From Candidatus Egerieisoma sp. (GTDB lineage: Bacteria > Bacteroidota > Bacteroidia > Bacteroidales > UBA932), in NCBI GenBank assembly GCA_045645465.1, contig JAZRIV010000007.1:5114-69113 (forward strand): a DNA stretch of 64,000 bases, written 5' to 3'. The position numbers were made by a program, and so were the translations under genes. Below are positions 32,054 to 43,775 of this stretch, in pieces; position 1 is the stretch's first letter, and each line of letters begins with the position of its first letter. The notes beneath the pieces were generated by a model, which made no database searches, was not told where the DNA came from, and saw only the letters and a program-made list of their open reading frames with translations.

Positions 32054-32130
32054 ATGTGGTGCAAGAAAAAAGAAAAACCCTCTCAGAATTGCTTCTAAGA
32101 GGGTTTTTCGTACCCAGAGCCGGGGTCGAA
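32054..32130. repeat. att junction distal to the tRNA: ATGTGGTGCAA motif, terminator hairpin copy and 21-bp copy of the tRNA-Leu 3' end
   Basis: GTACCCAGAGCCGGGGTCGAA at 32110-32130 is identical to 43693-43713. The hairpin CCCTCTCAGAA/TTCTAAGAGGG (32078-32103) and the motif at 32054-32064 parallel 43626-43686. Confidence 0.8.
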
Positions 32131-32301: not shown

Positions 32302-33660
32302 ATGGCAACAGTAACAGCATTTATCAGAACATCTGCCAAAAAAGTAAGGGATGTAAATGTCCGTTTCCGCTTGAGGGATGGCAGGCAAATCCAATTGTTG
32401 TACAGCAGTGATATAACTGTTAATCCTGAACATTGGAATCCAAAAAAGGAGGAAATAAAGGCAAAGGTTCTGATGGATCCGGTTCTGAAGGCAGAATTCA
32501 ATAGAAATGTTGCCAGAATAAAGGAGATAATTATAGAGGTTTACAATAAGGCTGAGGATAAGGCGGCCCTAACTTCTGAATGGTTGGCTCTGCAGGTGGA
32601 AAGAACCCTTCACCCGGCTGTTCATGATGAGAAGGAAGAAAATAATTTCTTTGAGGATTTTGACCAGTTCCTGGAGGTGAAGAAGCTCTCCGAAGTGCGC
32701 ACCAGAAACTTTAAGGTAATTTACCGTGCCCTGCAAAGATTTGAACTGTATAGGAGATTCAACCGCTACAGCAAGTTTGCACTCTCTTTCAAATCTGTTA
32801 CTCCCGATATATTACGTGAATTTGAGGAGTTCCTTAGAATGGAGCATACCTTTTTTATCAAGGATGAGGAGACTGGCAAATTCAAATGCAGCAGGAAATA
32901 CAAACCTGTTTACGATGTGTTCCCTGAGGCAAGGACTCCTCAGCAAAGGGGGCAGAACACCATCAATGACATTTTCACCAAATTGAGAACTTTCTTCCGT
33001 TGGGCAGTGGAACAAGGGAAAACAGAAAACAATCCATTTAAGCATTTCTCAGTAGAGGATTGTGTATATGGTACGCCATATTACATCACTATAGATGAAA
33101 GGAACAAACTGTACCATACCAATATGGATGATAATCCTTCACTGGCTGTACAAAGAGATATATTTGTTTTTCAATGCCTGATAGGTTGCAGGGTGGGTGA
33201 TTTATATAATCTAACCAAGAAAAACATAATAAACGGTGCGGTAGAATATATCCCTCGTAAAACAAAAGATGGAAGACCGGTAACAGTAAGGGTGCCGCTC
33301 AATTCAATAGCAAAAGAGATACTGATGCGCTACAGGGAAACTCCAGGTACTGCACTATTCCCATTGGTCTCCCAGCAGAAATACAATATAGCCATAAAGA
33401 AAATGTTCCTGGCTGCTGACCTTACCCGCCCGGTAGTGGTATTCAACCCCACCACTAGCGAAGAAGAAATCCGCCCACTGCACGAAATTGCCTCATCCCA
33501 CCTGGCCCGCAGATGCTTCATAGGGAACCTCTATAAACAAGTGAAAGATCCCAACCTGGTAGGCGTTCTCAGCGGCCACAAAGAAGGCAGCAAAGCCTTC
33601 TCCAGATATAGGGAGATTGATGAACAAATGAAGAAGGATTTGGTGGGGATGTTGGAGTAG
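32302..33660 (+). CDS. Tyrosine site-specific integrase (Bacteroidetes phage-integrase type with N-terminal arm-binding domain)
   Basis: The N-terminus is MATVTAFIRTSAKKVRDVNVRFRLRDGRQIQL. The catalytic region has CLIGCRVGDL (Arg), ASSHLARRCF (HxxR) and SGHKEGSKAFSRYREID (His, Tyr). Confidence 0.9.
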   Translation: MATVTAFIRTSAKKVRDVNVRFRLRDGRQIQLLYSSDITVNPEHWNPKKEEIKAKVLMDPVLKAEFNRNVARIKEIIIEVYNKAEDKAALTSEWLALQVERTLHPAVHDEKEENNFFEDFDQFLEVKKLSEVRTRNFKVIYRALQRFELYRRFNRYSKFALSFKSVTPDILREFEEFLRMEHTFFIKDEETGKFKCSRKYKPVYDVFPEARTPQQRGQNTINDIFTKLRTFFRWAVEQGKTENNPFKHFSVEDCVYGTPYYITIDERNKLYHTNMDDNPSLAVQRDIFVFQCLIGCRVGDLYNLTKKNIINGAVEYIPRKTKDGRPVTVRVPLNSIAKEILMRYRETPGTALFPLVSQQKYNIAIKKMFLAADLTRPVVVFNPTTSEEEIRPLHEIASSHLARRCFIGNLYKQVKDPNLVGVLSGHKEGSKAFSRYREIDEQMKKDLVGMLE

Positions 33661-33664
33661 AATC

Positions 33665-34723
33665 CTAAACTAGGGGTAATGTTATAATAAATTTATTTTC
33701 TGCATACTCAATTCCATCGATTATTTTATTAACTTCTCCTGGTTCTATACCTAAGGTTCCACCATTTAGTTCTATTAACGTTTTTGCTCTGAACATGCCT
33801 ATTCCTTGACCAGCTTTGTTTGTTTTAATAGCCAGATGGCCTGAATATCCTTCATTAAAAATGTCCTTCTCTTCAATAGGTTCAATATACAAACTGCTCA
33901 TCTTAAATATAATATACTGCTCTTTGGCTGATCTTTCAAAATAAATATAAGCAGTTGAATTTGGTTCAATATATTTACATGCATTTTCTATTATGTGGTA
34001 TATTGCAACCTGAAAGGATTCGTAATCTAAGTTGACAGTTTCAAAACAATCTGCAACATCAACTCGCACTTTTATTGTATTAAAATCAATAAAGAACGAA
34101 TAAAGGATTCCAAGAATAACATTGCGAACATTATGACTCCTTTTGTTAATAGACATACGTCCCTTTAGAAGTTTCTCATAGATTGTAAATTCAGCTTTTG
34201 TCGCGATAGTATTCTTGGTAATACGAAATAATACTTCTGGAATATCGCGATTTTTGCTTAAAATTCTTGATTTTATGAAATCTAAAGCTTCGCGGTGATT
34301 CTTTGTCTTGATCAGCTCTTCTTGTGGAATAAGAGCATATATTTCACCAAGTGAATGAGCATTTAATGATCGTAGGTTGTGTACGACTCTATCTACTCTC
34401 TGGGTAATCTCAGATATGCACTGATCTTTGACAGAATTATAGGTTTCTATTAATGTTTTAATAGCTGGTATAATAATCTCAAAATCTGCATGGAAATTGC
34501 AAGTTTTTGTATAATTTTCGCCACATGCAAATAGATTGCCTTTGCAGCTCTCATTTAGTCTTATCCTTTTGAATGAATTGTCAAGAGGGCATACAATTCT
34601 GTTATAACTCTTAGGCGGTTGTACATTAGAAATTATGCAATGTTGACATTTGTCCGAGACAAGTTCGTTAATTATAGCCTGTCCACATTCATTTGTTATT
34701 AATTTGTGCAATTTCTTTTGCAT
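33665..34723 (-). CDS. Soluble histidine-kinase-like protein with a Cys-rich N-terminal domain
   Basis: There is no TM segment. Seven Cys lie in the first ~75 aa (CGQ..., KCQHC, VCPL, ESCKGNLFACGENYTKTC). An H-box-like VVHNLRSLNAH is followed by HATPase_c motifs: the N-box IIENACKYIE and G-box KAGQGIGMFRAKTLIELNGG. Confidence 0.75.
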   Translation of the reverse strand: MQKKLHKLITNECGQAIINELVSDKCQHCIISNVQPPKSYNRIVCPLDNSFKRIRLNESCKGNLFACGENYTKTCNFHADFEIIIPAIKTLIETYNSVKDQCISEITQRVDRVVHNLRSLNAHSLGEIYALIPQEELIKTKNHREALDFIKSRILSKNRDIPEVLFRITKNTIATKAEFTIYEKLLKGRMSINKRSHNVRNVILGILYSFFIDFNTIKVRVDVADCFETVNLDYESFQVAIYHIIENACKYIEPNSTAYIYFERSAKEQYIIFKMSSLYIEPIEEKDIFNEGYSGHLAIKTNKAGQGIGMFRAKTLIELNGGTLGIEPGEVNKIIDGIEYAENKFIITLPLV

Positions 34724-35309
34724 AGTCTGATATCAACTCTAAATATTCAATAGGATCTGCATCCTTACGTAAACAGTAATCAACTTTTCGTAAATCTTCA
34801 TCAAAACGATCTCCAACTGTTTCCGCAGAATAAATTATTACTTTTTTCTCAGGGAAGGTTTGCTTAATACGAGCTGCAAGGCCAAGTCCTTGCTTTGAGG
34901 ATAATTTTACAGCTACACCATTAATATCAATGAATATAATATGAGCAGCTCTAATATCAGCATCTTCTAGACTGTTGATGTCTTTTTTGTAAAGTACATT
35001 GTGCCAACCTGCTGATTTTACTGTTTTAGTCATGCCAAATTTTTGATCATCAACAAATAAAATGTTTGTTGATTTTTTTAGCACCTCTATATCAATTGTG
35101 TAGATCGAATTTGTAGTGTCTACTTTATCATTCGGATTTGTAAAGTTAATGTCTATCTTTTGGGTTAACGATTGTGTCTGTTGTTGTTTTTGTGTCTGCT
35201 TTTGTTTTTGACCTTGCTTTTGCTTTTGAAAAATTTTTTCAAATCCCCACAAAGAAGTAATAATAGTTATAATGATACCTAAAATTGCAATGATTTGATC
35301 TATTGTCAT
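34689..35309 (-). CDS. Membrane-anchored stand-alone receiver (REC) domain protein with a Q/K-rich linker
   Basis: The N-terminal TM helix is IIAILGIIITIITSLWGF, followed by the linker QKQKQGQKQKQTQKQQQTQ. The REC signature residues are present: ILFVDDQ, HIIFIDING, KVIIYSAE and CLRKDADP. Its 3' end overlaps the kinase start by 35 nt. Confidence 0.7.
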   Translation of the reverse strand: MTIDQIIAILGIIITIITSLWGFEKIFQKQKQGQKQKQTQKQQQTQSLTQKIDINFTNPNDKVDTTNSIYTIDIEVLKKSTNILFVDDQKFGMTKTVKSAGWHNVLYKKDINSLEDADIRAAHIIFIDINGVAVKLSSKQGLGLAARIKQTFPEKKVIIYSAETVGDRFDEDLRKVDYCLRKDADPIEYLELISDYAKEIAQINNK

Positions 35310-35356
35310 GTTTTTTTAGCAAGTTAATATATTTTTTTTGTTTATTGTCATTATAT

Positions 35357-36307
35357 ATGAGAAAAGTACTTAATGGAACAAATTTTGAGTTACATAAATT
35401 ATTCATTACATTTGACACTATGATTATTAATGACAACATAAATGTTCAGGATGACCGTTTAATGAACGGTCTTATTCCTATGGTGCGAATCATGTCTAAG
35501 ATTGAAAAATCTGGGGATGATAGGGTTGTTATAGATTTTTCTAAAACGGATTTTATTTCACCTGTTTTCGTGCTCTCTCTACTTGTTTATGCTAAAAAGA
35601 GTGGTAAAGAGATAATTTTTGAAAACTTGAATGAGTATATGAAAGCTATTCATATGGATGGCGGAATAAAACCCGATGAATTGAGAAATAGTGAGTTCCT
35701 TGCTATAATGGAAGGATACTCTAAGAGAACATATATTCCAGTTATTAATTTCCCTGCCAACAAAAATAATGATGAGAAAGAAGGTATTCTTTCAGCAGTT
35801 GAAGAATTAATAATAAGGCAGTTGAATATACCTAACAATGTTGCGTATGGTATAAAGTATATGTTAGGTGAAACTATTGATAATATCACTGAACATTCAG
35901 AAACTGATAGAGGTTTTTTATTCTGTCAGGCTTATAAAAATAAAGGATATTTGGATATATGTATAGCGGATAGTGGTGTTACATTGTTGGGTAGCTATCA
36001 AAAATTGGAAGATAAATTTATAGAGAATGATTTGGAAGCTATTAAGGCCGCAAATAGACAGATTTCAAGTAAGAACTTGCCAGATGCTGAAAATAGGGGT
36101 TATGGTATCTACACTTCTAAAAAGATGTTGATAAAAGGATTGTCCGGCCAATATATGATAATGTCTGGAAGTGCTATATACATGAAGAGTAAGACAATTG
36201 ATCAATTCTTTACTCTTCCAGAAGGATTGAGATGGGATGGTACAATTGTTGCACTTAGAATACCGTACCAAGCATCACAGTTTGATTATATTAAATACAT
36301 TGAGTAA
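35357..36307 (+). CDS. STAS-like N-terminal domain fused to a SpoIIAB/RsbW-type GHKL ATPase (serine-kinase-like) domain
   Basis: Taken from the first ATG at 35357; the ORF-track start at 35303 is a TTG. The N-domain is DDRVVIDFSKTDFISPVFVLSLLVYAKK. The GHKL motifs are GETIDNITEHSE, ICIADSGVTLLGS and NRGYGIYTSKKM. The exact start is uncertain. Confidence 0.65.
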   Translation: MRKVLNGTNFELHKLFITFDTMIINDNINVQDDRLMNGLIPMVRIMSKIEKSGDDRVVIDFSKTDFISPVFVLSLLVYAKKSGKEIIFENLNEYMKAIHMDGGIKPDELRNSEFLAIMEGYSKRTYIPVINFPANKNNDEKEGILSAVEELIIRQLNIPNNVAYGIKYMLGETIDNITEHSETDRGFLFCQAYKNKGYLDICIADSGVTLLGSYQKLEDKFIENDLEAIKAANRQISSKNLPDAENRGYGIYTSKKMLIKGLSGQYMIMSGSAIYMKSKTIDQFFTLPEGLRWDGTIVALRIPYQASQFDYIKYIE

Positions 36308-36319
36308 AAGAAGAAAGCT

Positions 36320-36682
36320 ATGATAACAATTGATATTACAAGACTTTTGTCACAGGATTTGAAATCTAGGTCAAGGGCGCAAGATTTGCTATTGTATGTT
36401 CAGAATTGTGATGAGCAAGAGGTTGTGATAGATTTTCAGAATGTTAAGTTTGCAACCAGAAGCTTTATTGATGAATTCTACAATTTATTCATAAAGGAAA
36501 CTTCAAATTTGCCTTTCAAGGTGGAAATTGATAATGTTCCTGAGGATATACAAATAATGCTTAATTCTGTTAGCAATACGCAAACAAGAGCAAAGAACAG
36601 GACGGTTAATGCAACAGCTGAAGTAATAAATTTTGATAGTATGGATAGCATGCTCAAGTATATGAGCACAGTCGCATTTTGA
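36320..36682 (+). CDS. Free-standing STAS-like (DUF4325-like) protein
   Basis: 120 aa. The core EQEVVIDFQNVKFATRSFIDEFYNLF is paralogous to the N-domain of the upstream gene. It starts 12 nt after that gene and is followed by a terminator. Confidence 0.65.
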   Translation: MITIDITRLLSQDLKSRSRAQDLLLYVQNCDEQEVVIDFQNVKFATRSFIDEFYNLFIKETSNLPFKVEIDNVPEDIQIMLNSVSNTQTRAKNRTVNATAEVINFDSMDSMLKYMSTVAF

Positions 36683-38421: not shown

Positions 38422-38900
38422 AATCCAAGAATGGTAGGCCGTTCTTTATGGTTTATCAGTTTTTTGCTCAGGAACTGGGGTTGCGGGGAGCGGCAAAGGA
38501 GGTATATGCAATCATCTATGGCCGTTATGTGTCATTTGATGGGGTGGCGAAAGTCTCTCTGAGGGAAATGATGCGCCTTACAGGACTTACCAAGCAGAGC
38601 GTCATAAATGCACTTAAGGCCCTGCAGGAGGCAGGACTCATAGAGAAAACCGCCTCTACCAACAAGAAAAGCACCTACAAAATCCAGGGTATAGAGATTA
38701 GTCCCGACGGCAAACCGGTAAAAATTTTAGACCAGTCAAAAATTTTGACCAGTAAGGGGTCAAAAAACTTTACCAGTAGAGGTGAAAAAATTAGACCACA
38801 TATAGATAAAACAGATACTCTTAATAAATACAGTAAAAATGAAAATTCATCAATTAATCTTGAATCTCCAAGCAACTTCAGAGGGAGAACAACTCTGTAA
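38418..38900 (+). CDS. Winged-helix replication-initiator-like protein
   Basis: The wHTH segment is VSLREMMRLTGLTKQSVINALKALQEAGLIEK. The gene contains four iteron-like repeats and is followed by a DnaC/IstB-like ATPase gene. Confidence 0.55.
   Translation: MKSKNGRPFFMVYQFFAQELGLRGAAKEVYAIIYGRYVSFDGVAKVSLREMMRLTGLTKQSVINALKALQEAGLIEKTASTNKKSTYKIQGIEISPDGKPVKILDQSKILTSKGSKNFTSRGEKIRPHIDKTDTLNKYSKNENSSINLESPSNFRGRTTL
38720..38800 (+). repeat. Four 17-bp iteron-like direct repeats (putative replication origin) inside the initiator gene
   Basis: The repeats are aaaaattttagaccagt (38720), caaaaattttgaccagt (38737), caaaaaactttaccagt (38761) and gaaaaaattagaccaca (38784). A very AT-rich stretch follows. 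Confidence 0.55.
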
Positions 38901-39483
38901 ACCGGGTAAATTGCAAGAGAAAAAAGAAAATATTGAATCTGCTCTGCAGATGCTTTATAAAATACAGGTGGAAGCCAGAGGAAGGGAATTTATAGCTGAT
39001 GCCCCAACCCTCGACAAGCTGAATCTCGCTGCAAAATGGCTTGGCTGTAGTCAAAAATTTGGACTAGTGCTTTATGGAAATGTAGGTTCCGGCAAAACCA
39101 TGCTCCTGAACTCTCTTACGCAACTGTTTTTCCGTACTGGCTGCTTTATACCTCACATAATTAGCACTACGGCAGCAGAACTGCAAAGATACTATGTGCA
39201 GGATCAAAGCGCAGAAGGCTTCTACGGAGTAGCTAAAAACTGCAAAATCCTACTGCTTGACGACCTTGGTTGCGAACCAGAGAACTGCATCATATACGGC
39301 ACTTCATACCATCCCATCTCAGAAATAATCTACCACCGTTACCGCAACCAGCTCACCACAATTCTAACCACAAACCTCACCGACAGCGAACTTGCTTCCC
39401 GATATGGTCCCCGCATAATGGACCGCCTTGAAGAGTCATTTGATTTCATTGCCTACACCAACCCCAGCTACAGGAAGAGGTGA
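38839..39483 (+). CDS. DnaC/IstB-like AAA+ ATPase (helicase-loader-like)
   Basis: Walker A is LVLYGNVGSGKT and Walker B is ILLLDDLGCEP. The start is ambiguous between ATG 38839 (overlapping the upstream gene) and ATG 38950. Confidence 0.75.
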   Translation: MKIHQLILNLQATSEGEQLCKPGKLQEKKENIESALQMLYKIQVEARGREFIADAPTLDKLNLAAKWLGCSQKFGLVLYGNVGSGKTMLLNSLTQLFFRTGCFIPHIISTTAAELQRYYVQDQSAEGFYGVAKNCKILLLDDLGCEPENCIIYGTSYHPISEIIYHRYRNQLTTILTTNLTDSELASRYGPRIMDRLEESFDFIAYTNPSYRKR

Positions 39484-39668: not shown

Positions 39669-40049
39669 ATGCTTCCAAAGATGAATAAAACCAAGATGCT
39701 CACACTCAGAATGACTGAGGCTGAGTTTGTGGAATTCAAGTATATTATGAATGAGGCCGGATATAAATCAATGTCCAAATTCATCAGGTATAAAGTATTT
39801 AGAGGAAAAGAGCGGACAGTGCGGACCAAGCTGCATGATGAGAATGTGATTACCGTTCTCAAAGCTCTGATTATGGAGGTTAACAAGGTTGGTGTAAATT
39901 ACAATCAACTGGTAAGAAAATTCAATGCCCAAAAGCCATATGGTCCCGATGATTATAGATATAAACTGATGCACGATCTGCAAGAACTGACAAAAAAGAT
40001 GTTAAGGACTCTTTCGGAGGTGAAGGAGGGGATTGTGGGGAAATCTTGA
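39669..40049 (+). CDS. MobC-family (ribbon-helix-helix) mobilisation relaxosome accessory protein
   Basis: LTLRMTEAEFVEFKYIMNEAGYKSMSKFIRY is the RHH part. VNKVGVNYNQLVRKFN is the family-typical xGxNxNQxxRxxN motif. Confidence 0.7.
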   Translation: MLPKMNKTKMLTLRMTEAEFVEFKYIMNEAGYKSMSKFIRYKVFRGKERTVRTKLHDENVITVLKALIMEVNKVGVNYNQLVRKFNAQKPYGPDDYRYKLMHDLQELTKKMLRTLSEVKEGIVGKS

Positions 40050-40292: not shown

Positions 40293-41537
40293 ATGAGTTT
40301 TATAGAAAAAGATACATATGGGATTGAAGATATTCAGTCCTTAATAGAAATTCAGGCAGAAGAAAATACATACTATGAATTTAAGGATGCAAGGGCTATT
40401 GATGATAAGCAGAAGGCTGAAATCTCAAAAGATGTGTCTGCATTTGCAAATGCCGATGGGGGTGTTATTATCTATGGTTTGAATGAAGATAGAAATACCC
40501 ACAAGGCATCATGTTTGAGTTTTGTTAACTCTTCAAGATATTCAAAGGAATGGCTTGAAAATGTTATTCTGTCTAATATACACAGAAAGATTGATGGGCT
40601 TTATCCAACTACTGAAAGTTTTAAAGTATGGGCACAATACTCAGCTTCTGATCTTACAGCGTGGGAAAACGGTAATACATACATGGATGCTGTTACATGT
40701 GTACATGACGCGACTAAAAAAGGCTGGATCCCTAGCGGGGCCCAATATTACTGGCCTAAAAACGGAAAGTTGTCTTTTGCAGCATTTTCGCCTGCATCAA
40801 CGACCAATGTAACATATGATAAAACAGGTGTAACAGTTAAAGATTATATTGTTCCAAGTACAGAAAATCATACCGATCTTTTGTACAGTCACAGAGCATA
40901 CAATAAGACTGCTACTAATCAGGATGATATTCCAGATATTCCTAATTACACAGGAGTTGACATTAACTTCCATCATGCATTGACTTCTGTTATATTCAAA
41001 GTAAAACAGGCTGCAGCATATACAGGCACCACTTTAACATTAAAATCAATACAATTAAACAATGTATATAGCAAAGGTACTTTCAAAGAGAATATAACTG
41101 CTCAAACTGGGGGGACAGATGATGATAAATGTACAAGAGCACCTGGTTGGAGTGATCAAGAACAAGAGGTGATTTATACAGTAATAAGTGATATCTCCCA
41201 AGTTTTAACTACATCAGCTGTTGTTGTATCTGGTGCAAAAGACATGCTTTTGATTGGACAGAAATATAATCATGGAACTAAATACGTAAGCATGACTGTT
41301 ACCTATACTATAAAGAGTCCTACCGGTAGTGAAATTTTACAGAGTAGTACAGTAGAATTCAAAGGCCTTACACACAAGGTTAATGGTACTGATGCAGTAA
41401 GCAGCATTCAAGATGGGTGGTACCCAGGATACGAATATACTTATATAATATCTATTGGATTGAATGGTGAAATTCAATTTGAGCCAATTGTTAGTGAATG
41501 GACTCCTATTTTGGCTGATCCAGAAATTGGATTGTAA
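40293..41537 (+). pseudogene. Chimeric ORF: AlbA_2/Schlafen-type N-terminal fragment fused in frame to a signal-less fimbrillin (FimA/Mfa-like) C-terminal portion
   Basis: The first ~105 aa (YYEFKDARAIDDKQKAEISKDVSAFANADGGVIIYGL) match the AlbA_2 DNA-binding domain. The rest (FKVWAQ..., YYWPKNGKLSFAAFSP, HTDLLYS, INFHHALTSVIFKVK, IQLNNVYSKGTF) matches fimbrillin family proteins lacking their lipoprotein leader. The junction is near 40600-40620. Confidence 0.6.
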
Positions 41538-43625: not shown

Positions 43626-43713
43626 ATGTGGTGCAAATGTGGTGCAACCAAAAAGAAAAACCCTCTTAGAGATATCTCTAAGAGGGTTTCAAGTACCCAG
43701 AGCCGGGGTCGAA
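43626..43713. repeat. att junction at the tRNA: tandem ATGTGGTGCAA motifs, terminator hairpin and 21-bp core (part of the tRNA)
   Basis: ATGTGGTGCAA occurs at 43626-43636 and again at 43637-43647. The core GTACCCAGAGCCGGGGTCGAA lies at 43693-43713. Confidence 0.8.
43651..43686 (-). terminator. Rho-independent terminator of tRNA-Leu, supplied by the end of the integrated element
   Basis: Perfect 13-bp arms CCCTCTTAGAGAT/ATCTCTAAGAGGG, followed on the minus strand by TTTTTCTTTT. Confidence 0.7.
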
Positions 43714-43775
43714 CCGGCACGGGTCGCCCCACTGGTGTTTGAGACCAGCGCGTCTACCGATTCCGCCATCTGGGC
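43694..43775 (-). tRNA. tRNA-Leu (anticodon CAA), type II with long variable arm
   Basis: The minus strand reads GCCCAGATGGCGGAATCGGTAGACGCGCTGGTCTCAAACACCAGTGGGGCGACCCGTGCCGGTTCGACCCCGGCTCTGGGTA. The anticodon stem is CTGGT/ACCAG with loop CTCAAAC, and the T-arm is GCCGG-TTCGACC-CCGGC. Confidence 0.85.

Follow-up and report, generated by a model that had tools for sequence, protein, structure and literature searches.

A membrane-anchored receiver and its histidine kinase as a candidate two-gene defence phosphorelay on a mobile element of Candidatus Egerieisoma sp.

What does a response-regulator receiver do when the protein that carries it has no output domain and is instead predicted to be fixed in the membrane by a single helix? 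The question is raised by a gene in a 64,000-nucleotide stretch of Candidatus Egerieisoma sp. DNA (GenBank assembly GCA_045645465.1, contig JAZRIV010000007.1, positions 5,114 to 69,113 of the forward strand; hereafter the window). Its product, here called TM-REC, joins a predicted transmembrane (TM) helix to a receiver (REC) domain, and the gene overlaps that of a histidine kinase. A preliminary description had reported this architecture, had compared it with Detocs-type defence and had suggested that phosphorylation-driven oligomerisation could perturb the membrane or recruit partners to it; our analysis confirms the observation and partly supports the interpretation. We propose that TM-REC may be the A component of a self-contained, mobile two-gene phosphorelay that acts in defence through its own TM helix, a reading to which we assign somewhat less than an even chance. 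Since the family is already catalogued as a candidate, PDC-M43, this is not a new system; what is new here is the reading of a bare helix as the output, the placement of the pair in the P2 hotspot and the wide modular use of the membrane segment.

The receiver protein and its partner kinase

TM-REC is encoded by an open reading frame (ORF) that starts with ATG and stops with TGA. Its features, in window coordinates, are:

34689-35309, minus strand: TM-REC gene (PDC-M43A family), 206 amino acids (aa), from the ORF listing and a PADLOC match
35241-35294, minus strand: predicted single TM helix, residues 6-23 (IIAILGIIITIITSLWGF); the AlphaFold2 (AF2) model places a helix at 3-26
35172-35228, minus strand: Q/K-rich linker repeat, residues 28-46, from Tandem Repeats Finder
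35097-35231, minus strand: whole disordered linker, residues 27-71, with an AF2 predicted local distance difference test score (pLDDT) below 50 at residues 29-57
34695-35090, minus strand: receiver (CheY-like) domain, residues 74-205, from alignment, AF2, Foldseek and hhalign
35046-35051, minus strand: acidic pair D87/D88 of the receiver, motif ILFVDDQ
34926-34928, minus strand: predicted phospho-acceptor D128, motif IIFIDING
34827-34829, minus strand: S161, motif IIYSAE
34764-34766, minus strand: K182, motif CLRKDADP

The ORF, the motifs, AF2 and Foldseek agree on a single-pass membrane-anchored receiver that lacks an output domain and is tightly linked to a kinase, and every motif quoted in the preliminary description (the TM helix, the Q/K run and the four receiver motifs) is present in the 206-aa product. 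The AF2 model (mean pLDDT 80.7), built from an alignment of 41 family homologues, comprises the N-terminal helix at residues 3-26, disorder at 29-66 and a (beta-alpha)5 domain at 74-205, whose five strand-helix units occupy residues 82-205. The Lys-rich stretch that follows the helix points to an N-out/C-in topology, in which the protein would sit in the inner membrane with its flexible linker and receiver on the cytoplasmic side. The linker had been described as encoded by a repeat at about 35170-35235, close to the imperfect period-6/18 tandem repeat that Tandem Repeats Finder delimits at 35172-35228.

Several lines of evidence indicate that the C-terminal domain is a divergent yet complete receiver, to judge from alignment and modelling. 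Among 41 aligned homologues D87, D128, S161 and K182 are invariant and D88 is kept in at least 90%, and in the AF2 model the conserved residues lie at the C-terminal ends of strands 1, 3, 4 and 5. When the model was searched against the PDB with Foldseek, all of the top 50 matches were REC domains (NtrX, NtrC1, PhoP, CheY, RcsB and PorX among them), with a TM-score of 0.79 for the NtrX target, and hhalign paired D87/D88, D128, S161 and K182 with D12/D13, D57, T87 and K109 of Escherichia coli CheY. Conservation, fold and the CheY alignment thus all favour a retained phospho-acceptor pocket, rather than the other flavodoxin-like fold that the preliminary description had considered as a refutation. 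The domain also has features particular to the family, namely an 11-residue beta3-alpha3 loop and an invariant G-L-G-L-A motif, and its alpha4/beta5-alpha5 region is strongly conserved (G166, R168, F169, L180, A184, P186 and F189).

Domain libraries scarcely recognise this receiver. Pfam PF00072 (Response_reg) gave no match to the 206-aa protein at E<=0.1, where the scan returned noise only, such as DUF4834; the NCBIfam scan likewise returned noise only, and a precomputed PF00072 match was present on one homologue, P0043. Because Pfam is silent on TM-REC, the assignment rests on structure and profile evidence. The family profile matched natural receivers among PDB sequences at just E 0.015-0.2, the REC domain of NtrX being the one at 0.015. 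Ranked above them were de novo TIM barrels (DeNovoTIM6, E 5e-7), a match that spans the beta1-alpha1-beta2-alpha2-beta3 part of the profile and that we took to be an artefact of beta-alpha repeat similarity.

The partner gene lies immediately downstream on the same strand:

33665-34723, minus strand: cytoplasmic histidine kinase (PDC-M43B), 352 aa, from a PADLOC match, alignments, AF2 and Foldseek
Kinase residues 1-72: N-terminal four-cysteine (4-Cys) alpha/beta domain with C26, C29, C45 and C67, from alignments and AF2
34379-34381, minus strand: H115 in the DHp helix, from alignments
Kinase residues 194-350: CA domain with N247 and G305-x-G307-x-G309, from alignments

By alignment and model this protein is predicted to be a soluble class I histidine kinase. 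Its sequence contains no hydrophobic segment, and its AF2 model (pLDDT 89.6) starts with an alpha/beta N-domain of about 70 residues, continues with a long helix (74-131) and ends in an ATP-binding domain; the best Foldseek matches to the model are HK853, WalK and DivL (E 1e-12 to 1e-13), with CusS also found. H115, within the motif R-x-x-H-N-L-x-S-x-N-A-H, is invariant among homologues, as are N247 and G305/G307/G309; the Pfam HATPase_c match reaches 20.4 bits, under its cut-off of 26.4. In the N-domain C29, C45 and C67 are kept in at least 90% of database homologues and C26 less often (73% of the genome-locus set); the domain probably binds zinc and is presumed to be the sensor of the kinase. 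Pfam and NCBIfam scans of the kinase gave no match to a tetratricopeptide repeat (TPR), and Pfam, NCBIfam and Foldseek recognised no toxic or enzymatic domain besides DHp and CA.

The PDC-M43 family and its genomic settings

By profile, the window pair is a member of the candidate defence system PDC-M43. TM-REC matches PADLOC family PDC-M43A (PDLC04646) at E 1.4e-53, with residues 11-199 aligned to profile positions 14-200 of 203, and the kinase matches PDC-M43B (PDLC04647) at E 2.3e-97 over residues 1-350; the two genes are adjacent, on one strand and in the A>>B order of PDC-M43. The PDC systems are 145 untested candidates nominated through 'guilt-by-embedding' in BREX, DISARM and type I restriction-modification (R-M) loci (Payne et al., bioRxiv 10.1101/2024.01.29.577857), and PDC-M43 is cassette CAS_00151, FAM_00604>>FAM_02649, in the supplement to that study (10.1101/2024.01.29.577857). 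Besides PDC-M43, no PADLOC family matched either protein at E<=0.1; the presence of Detocs models in the release was unconfirmed, and Detocs is compared below by its description.

The two genes are strictly linked. Directly after the TM-REC homologue, and on its strand, comes a kinase homologue in 79 of 80 genome loci (the sole exception is a contig end) and in all eight viral contigs from IMG/VR. Spacing could be compared at 76 loci: the genes overlap in 55, by 4 nt in 30 of these, and in the remaining 21 the gap does not exceed 12 nt. In the window the two ORFs share 35 nt. The overlap and the close linkage are consistent with the translational coupling claimed in the preliminary description, although the coupling itself is inferred. 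Clustering of 1070 flanking ORFs revealed no third gene in more than 6 of the 80 loci and no second receiver gene. The preliminary description had also named a constant, separate output regulator as a finding that would count against it; at the 80 loci none recurs, and no family of response-regulator outputs or DNA-binding regulators is repeated among the 145 proteins encoded within two genes of the pair.

The cassette is horizontally mobile, and its distribution is patchy and crosses phyla. Exact-sequence look-ups found neither TM-REC nor the kinase of the window on record. The protein database holds 46 homologues of TM-REC, and a pattern and tblastn scan in which each species was represented by one genome detected relatives in 127 of 185,579 species, among them Bacteroidota, Proteobacteria, Verrucomicrobiota, Planctomycetota, Firmicutes, Patescibacteria and others. 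Among 5426 complete E. coli genomes DETEC-P881 alone carries the pair (NZ_CP116100.1, 2445-4106). There, as on four of the IMG/VR contigs, it sits between the genes for P2 gpA (replication endonuclease) and gpQ (portal), a documented defence hotspot where old and tin occur along with many defence systems. On three Bacteroidales phage contigs (L086, L087 and L088) it lies directly downstream of lysis genes, an amidase or endolysin and a spanin-like gene. A tblastn search of 50,697 GenBank phage records gave no match, so the phage linkage rests on the IMG/VR contigs and the one E. coli prophage. The recurrent families among the 145 neighbouring proteins are HsdR (3-4) and HsdS (3), both of type I R-M systems, YhcG/PDC-S02 (3), reverse transcriptase (2) and Fic (2).

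The membrane segment and competing accounts of its role

Since neither protein contains an enzymatic or DNA-binding module and the cassette has no third conserved gene, its output must be the TM helix, a protein contact made by REC, or the kinase N-domain. The spread of the cassette across phyla suggests a universal target, of which the membrane would be the simplest. Of 78 genome homologues about 73 begin with a hydrophobic helix and then Lys/Arg residues, which place the receiver in the cytoplasm. The sequence of this helix varies within the family: at least six TM types, some with two helices, precede the conserved REC domain, and the linker after the TM core ranges from 24 to 73 aa.

The commonest TM type, present in 52 of 79 homologues, has the conserved head W-I-I-E-N-K-E-W-x-F-S-G-I-G-V. 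A profile made from a 44-aa alignment of this module also found it free-standing, in proteins of 45-77 aa whose copy of the helix is followed by a basic stretch and the tail NSTNIQ-G-D-N. The profile search returned short proteins only; a search of a representative library supplied the fusions. Among 1.84 billion representatives the module occurs in 2757 clusters, mostly of small proteins, with some fused to OB-fold or uncharacterised domains. A TM type that is swapped among regulators and also stands alone behaves as a portable functional unit, and by analogy this modular use supports, short of proof, the helix as the effector.

In the window helix A8, G11, T15, T18, S19 and G22 fall within a 100-degree arc (P ~0.001 under random placement). 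P0001, the closest homologue (88% identical), keeps this small/polar stripe while differing at the hydrophobic positions 9, 13, 14, 17 and 23. The two proteins have three differences in residues 72-206, and their N-terminal 71 residues are far more divergent; a 2-aa indel lies within the linker repeat, so the variable linker length foreseen in the preliminary description is borne out.

We infer the following course of events. An infection-related cue would act on the N-domain of the kinase, whereupon His115 would autophosphorylate and hand the phosphoryl group to Asp128. The phosphorylated receiver would alter its alpha4-beta5-alpha5 surface and self-associate, the TM helices would form a leaky bundle, packed anew along their small/polar side, and the membrane would depolarise, so that the infected cell would stop growing (abortive infection). 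Membrane perturbation through phosphorylation-driven oligomerisation, as put forward in the preliminary description, is here suggested by analogy with Cam1, by the polar helix face and by the modularity of the TM segment. A bolder version, in which phosphorylated REC gates a bundle of its own helices as a phosphorylation-gated pore and the NKEW-FSGIGV helix is a widespread portable membrane-effector module, common to the LPO_1073/Vpar_1526 cassettes described below and to many single-protein fusions, is possible but doubtful.

Several observations weigh against a helix that acts as the defensive output. The TM helix is missing from about 6% of homologues (L071, L076 and the phage-borne L086, L087 and L088), so a membrane-spanning helix is not strictly required; these variants carry instead a C-terminal helical extension of about 65 aa, the last helix of which is weakly hydrophobic. 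The phage-borne copies are:

L086, 4730-5410: PDC-M43A copy that is TM-less
L087, 7902-8594: PDC-M43A copy that is TM-less
L088, 7914-8594: PDC-M43A copy that is TM-less

The window helix does not have the NKEW-FSGIGV signature and matches the module profile only marginally, at 12.6 bits, so that the modularity argument carries over to it by architecture only, and repeated swapping of TM types fits plain anchoring as well. Defence genes do not dominate the surroundings, with about 12 clear matches among the 145 neighbouring proteins, a raw count given without a background rate. Finally, a literature search found no experiment, mechanism or domain description for PDC-M43, whose defence role is predicted from genomic position only. 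The TM-less variants, the interchangeable helices and the lack of experiments together hold our confidence in the proposed helix-driven phosphorelay below one half.

The same interchangeability of TM segments, with one or two helices of several unrelated types, and the TM-less members would be expected if the helix merely localised the receiver and phosphorylated REC bound a host or phage factor, such as a DNA-entry or lysis protein or a transporter, much as CheY and DivK work through protein binding, giving superinfection exclusion without membrane damage. The conserved alpha4/beta5-alpha5 region would suit a partner-binding surface, and the copies on L086-88 stand just downstream of lysis genes. 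A cassette that moves across phyla with no conserved partner gene would, however, need a universal target, and a simple anchor needs neither the high conservation nor the free-standing existence of the commonest N-terminal module; we consider this account unlikely. Quite unlikely too, in our estimate, is the opposite direction of regulation, in which unphosphorylated TM-REC is a membrane toxin that the kinase keeps phosphorylated and harmless until acyl-phosphate decay, upon a halt in host expression or a drop in ATP during infection or upon loss of the element, frees it. The protein anatomy fits this equally well; the tight ORF overlap probably fixes the ratio in which the two proteins are produced, and the cassette is found on prophages and integrative elements. 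In Detocs, moreover, loss of the acceptor Asp of DtcB is toxic and phosphate flux is balanced against autoimmunity (10.1101/2023.01.24.525353). What speaks for activation is the conserved 4-Cys N-domain, which looks like the sensor of an activating cue and not like part of a constitutive kinase.

The pair might instead be a non-immune accessory two-component system whose single-domain response regulator controls some function of the element or the host, such as transfer, maintenance or an envelope response. Ordinary signalling commonly uses receivers that stand alone, some sources annotate the homologues plainly as 'response regulator' and 'sensor histidine kinase', and many loci have no recognisable defence neighbour. 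We nevertheless regard such a role as distinctly improbable: the kinase lacks a sensor in the membrane or periplasm, neither gene of the cassette supplies a DNA-binding or enzymatic output, the surrounding genes vary and the occurrence is patchy (127 of 185,579 species and one of 5426 E. coli genomes), and the family was selected through embedding in R-M, BREX or DISARM loci and occupies the P2 gpA-gpQ hotspot. Least probable by far is that the receiver is a membrane-tethered, DtcB-like phosphate buffer and that the effector proper, acting on some other target, is the kinase or its 4-Cys domain. Detocs does have a stand-alone buffer receiver, and the kinase N-domain is conserved without an assigned function; yet apart from DHp and CA no toxic or enzymatic domain is recognisable in the kinase, and a buffer that lacks an effector makes little sense in a strict two-gene system.

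If phosphorylated REC gates a bundle of its own helices, PDC-M43 would be the minimal defensive two-component system and the first His-Asp relay with a bare TM helix as its output. If the cassette defends against phages, it would be a second architecture of defensive two-component signalling, far simpler than Detocs, and the Cam1-like design of a single TM helix with a cytosolic receiver would turn out to be built on phosphorylation as well. The natural E. coli prophage copy in the P2 hotspot allows mutants to be tested directly in a laboratory host.

The free-standing module has partners of its own. In three phyla, with examples in Clostridium perfringens, Fusobacterium and Aliivibrio fischeri, the small module gene overlaps a downstream gene of the uncharacterised LPO_1073/Vpar_1526 family (NF045477, PF28206), whose product begins with the module's GSTNIQ-x-D-I-H-I motif. 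These cassettes have among their neighbours ThsB/ThsA of Thoeris, within a P2-like prophage, and a DUF4276 protein together with an AbiL/AriA-like ATPase. The small TM protein and LPO_1073/Vpar_1526 look like an undescribed two-gene cassette family, and a literature search on Vpar_1526/LPO_1073 found no experimental work. As thousands of proteins of about 60 aa beside LPO_1073/Vpar_1526, the module suggests that small membrane effectors form a larger group that is still unexplored.

The carrying element and comparison with known systems

In the window the PDC-M43 pair is the low-GC cargo of an integrative mobilisable element of about 11.6 kb at a tRNA-Leu gene, bounded by two direct repeats that are 86% identical and 11,583 nt apart. 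The features of the element are:

32054-32130: left 77-nt direct repeat, putative attL, with a copy of the tRNA-Leu 3' end, from a repeat search
43637-43713: right 77-nt direct repeat, putative attR, from a repeat search
43693-43775, minus strand: tRNA-Leu(CAA), its 3' end overlapped by the right repeat
32302-33660, plus strand: tyrosine recombinase with Pfam Phage_int_SAM_5, Phage_integrase and Arm-DNA-bind_5
39669-40049: Bacteroides-type MobA, from a domain match

The pair sits in a trough where the GC fraction falls to 0.30-0.36, as against about 0.43 in the flanks, and the element further encodes a helix-turn-helix (HTH) protein and an IstB/DnaC-like ATPase. A scan for promoters and terminators gave counts at chance level.

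Beside the TM-REC gene, and divergent from it, is a second low-GC pair. The gene at 35303-36307 (plus strand) encodes a protein of 334 aa that weakly matches HATPase_c_2, the STAS-like DUF4325 and, in PADLOC, the N-terminal part of DrmA (E 8.6e-6); that at 36320-36682 (plus strand) encodes 120 aa with a STAS-like DUF4325 match. Together they resemble a partner-switching module, and a search of PDB sequences gave no match for either. Because PDC-M43 homologues at other loci are not accompanied by this pair, we rejected it as part of the system. For a neighbouring protein of 295 aa, PDB sequences likewise gave no match. Further along, an ORF of 414 aa at 40293-41537 (plus strand) shows an odd combination of Schlafen AlbA_2 (residues 24-103) and fimbrillin-like Mfa_like_1 (residues 110-403) and may be a fusion created by rearrangement within the element. 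A 20-nt unit (AGTCAAAAATTTTGACCAGT-like) occurs in four copies at 38717-38777 and 39049-39068, three of them spaced 17-24 nt, in or beside the HTH and IstB-like genes; the array could represent iterons or other protein-binding sites of the element.

Among known systems the first to be compared is Detocs, which consists of a kinase (DtcA), a buffer receiver (DtcB) and a receiver-effector (DtcC), all three of which were needed for detection as published (Rousset et al., 10.1101/2023.01.24.525353). The DtcC effector is a PNP nucleosidase in 80% of cases, can be a nuclease, and is membrane-spanning in a minority, for example a TM alpha/beta hydrolase (10.1101/2023.01.24.525353), in agreement with what the preliminary description had stated of membrane-spanning variants. 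Both systems would use a His-Asp phosphorelay against phages, demonstrated for Detocs and proposed for PDC-M43, and both have a cytoplasmic kinase with a non-membrane sensor. That sensor, however, is a TPR domain in Detocs and a 4-Cys domain of about 70 aa in the PDC-M43 kinase; Detocs has three genes and PDC-M43 two; the effector follows REC in Detocs whereas the TM helix precedes it in PDC-M43; and an enzymatic or killing domain stands against a bare helix with no enzyme. On gene number, the absent TPR sensor, the reversed domain order and the lack of an enzymatic effector, we rejected membership in Detocs.

In design the closer parallel is Cam1 (PMC10808066), a type III CRISPR CARF effector with a single N-terminal TM helix that depolarises the membrane and arrests growth. 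At about 200 aa each, Cam1 and TM-REC both lack an enzymatic domain and both join an N-terminal TM helix through a linker to a Rossmann-like domain that receives the signal in the cytosol, and each has small/polar residues on one helix face. The CARF domain of Cam1 binds cA4 and is linked to Cas10, whereas TM-REC has a phosphorylatable receiver and a histidine kinase, and no Cas or CARF family was among the recurrent neighbours of the PDC-M43 pair. The two proteins have no sequence relationship, so the resemblance is one of design and not homology, and the pore model, experimentally supported for Cam1, extends to TM-REC by analogy alone.

CheY, DivK and CpdR resemble TM-REC as receivers with no fused output and an identical active-site quintet. 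They are soluble and act by binding defined partners, whereas TM-REC is predicted to be inserted in the membrane, has the 11-residue beta3-alpha3 loop and the G-L-G-L-A motif, and lies below Pfam detection. The LPO_1073/Vpar_1526 cassettes, in turn, have in common with most PDC-M43A proteins the NKEW-FSGIGV helix, the basic stretch and the NSTNIQ-G-D-N tail, together with a small gene that overlaps its downstream partner and a setting in prophages or defence islands; they differ in that the partner is not a kinase and no REC domain is present, and the TM-REC of the window does not carry the module signature that they share.

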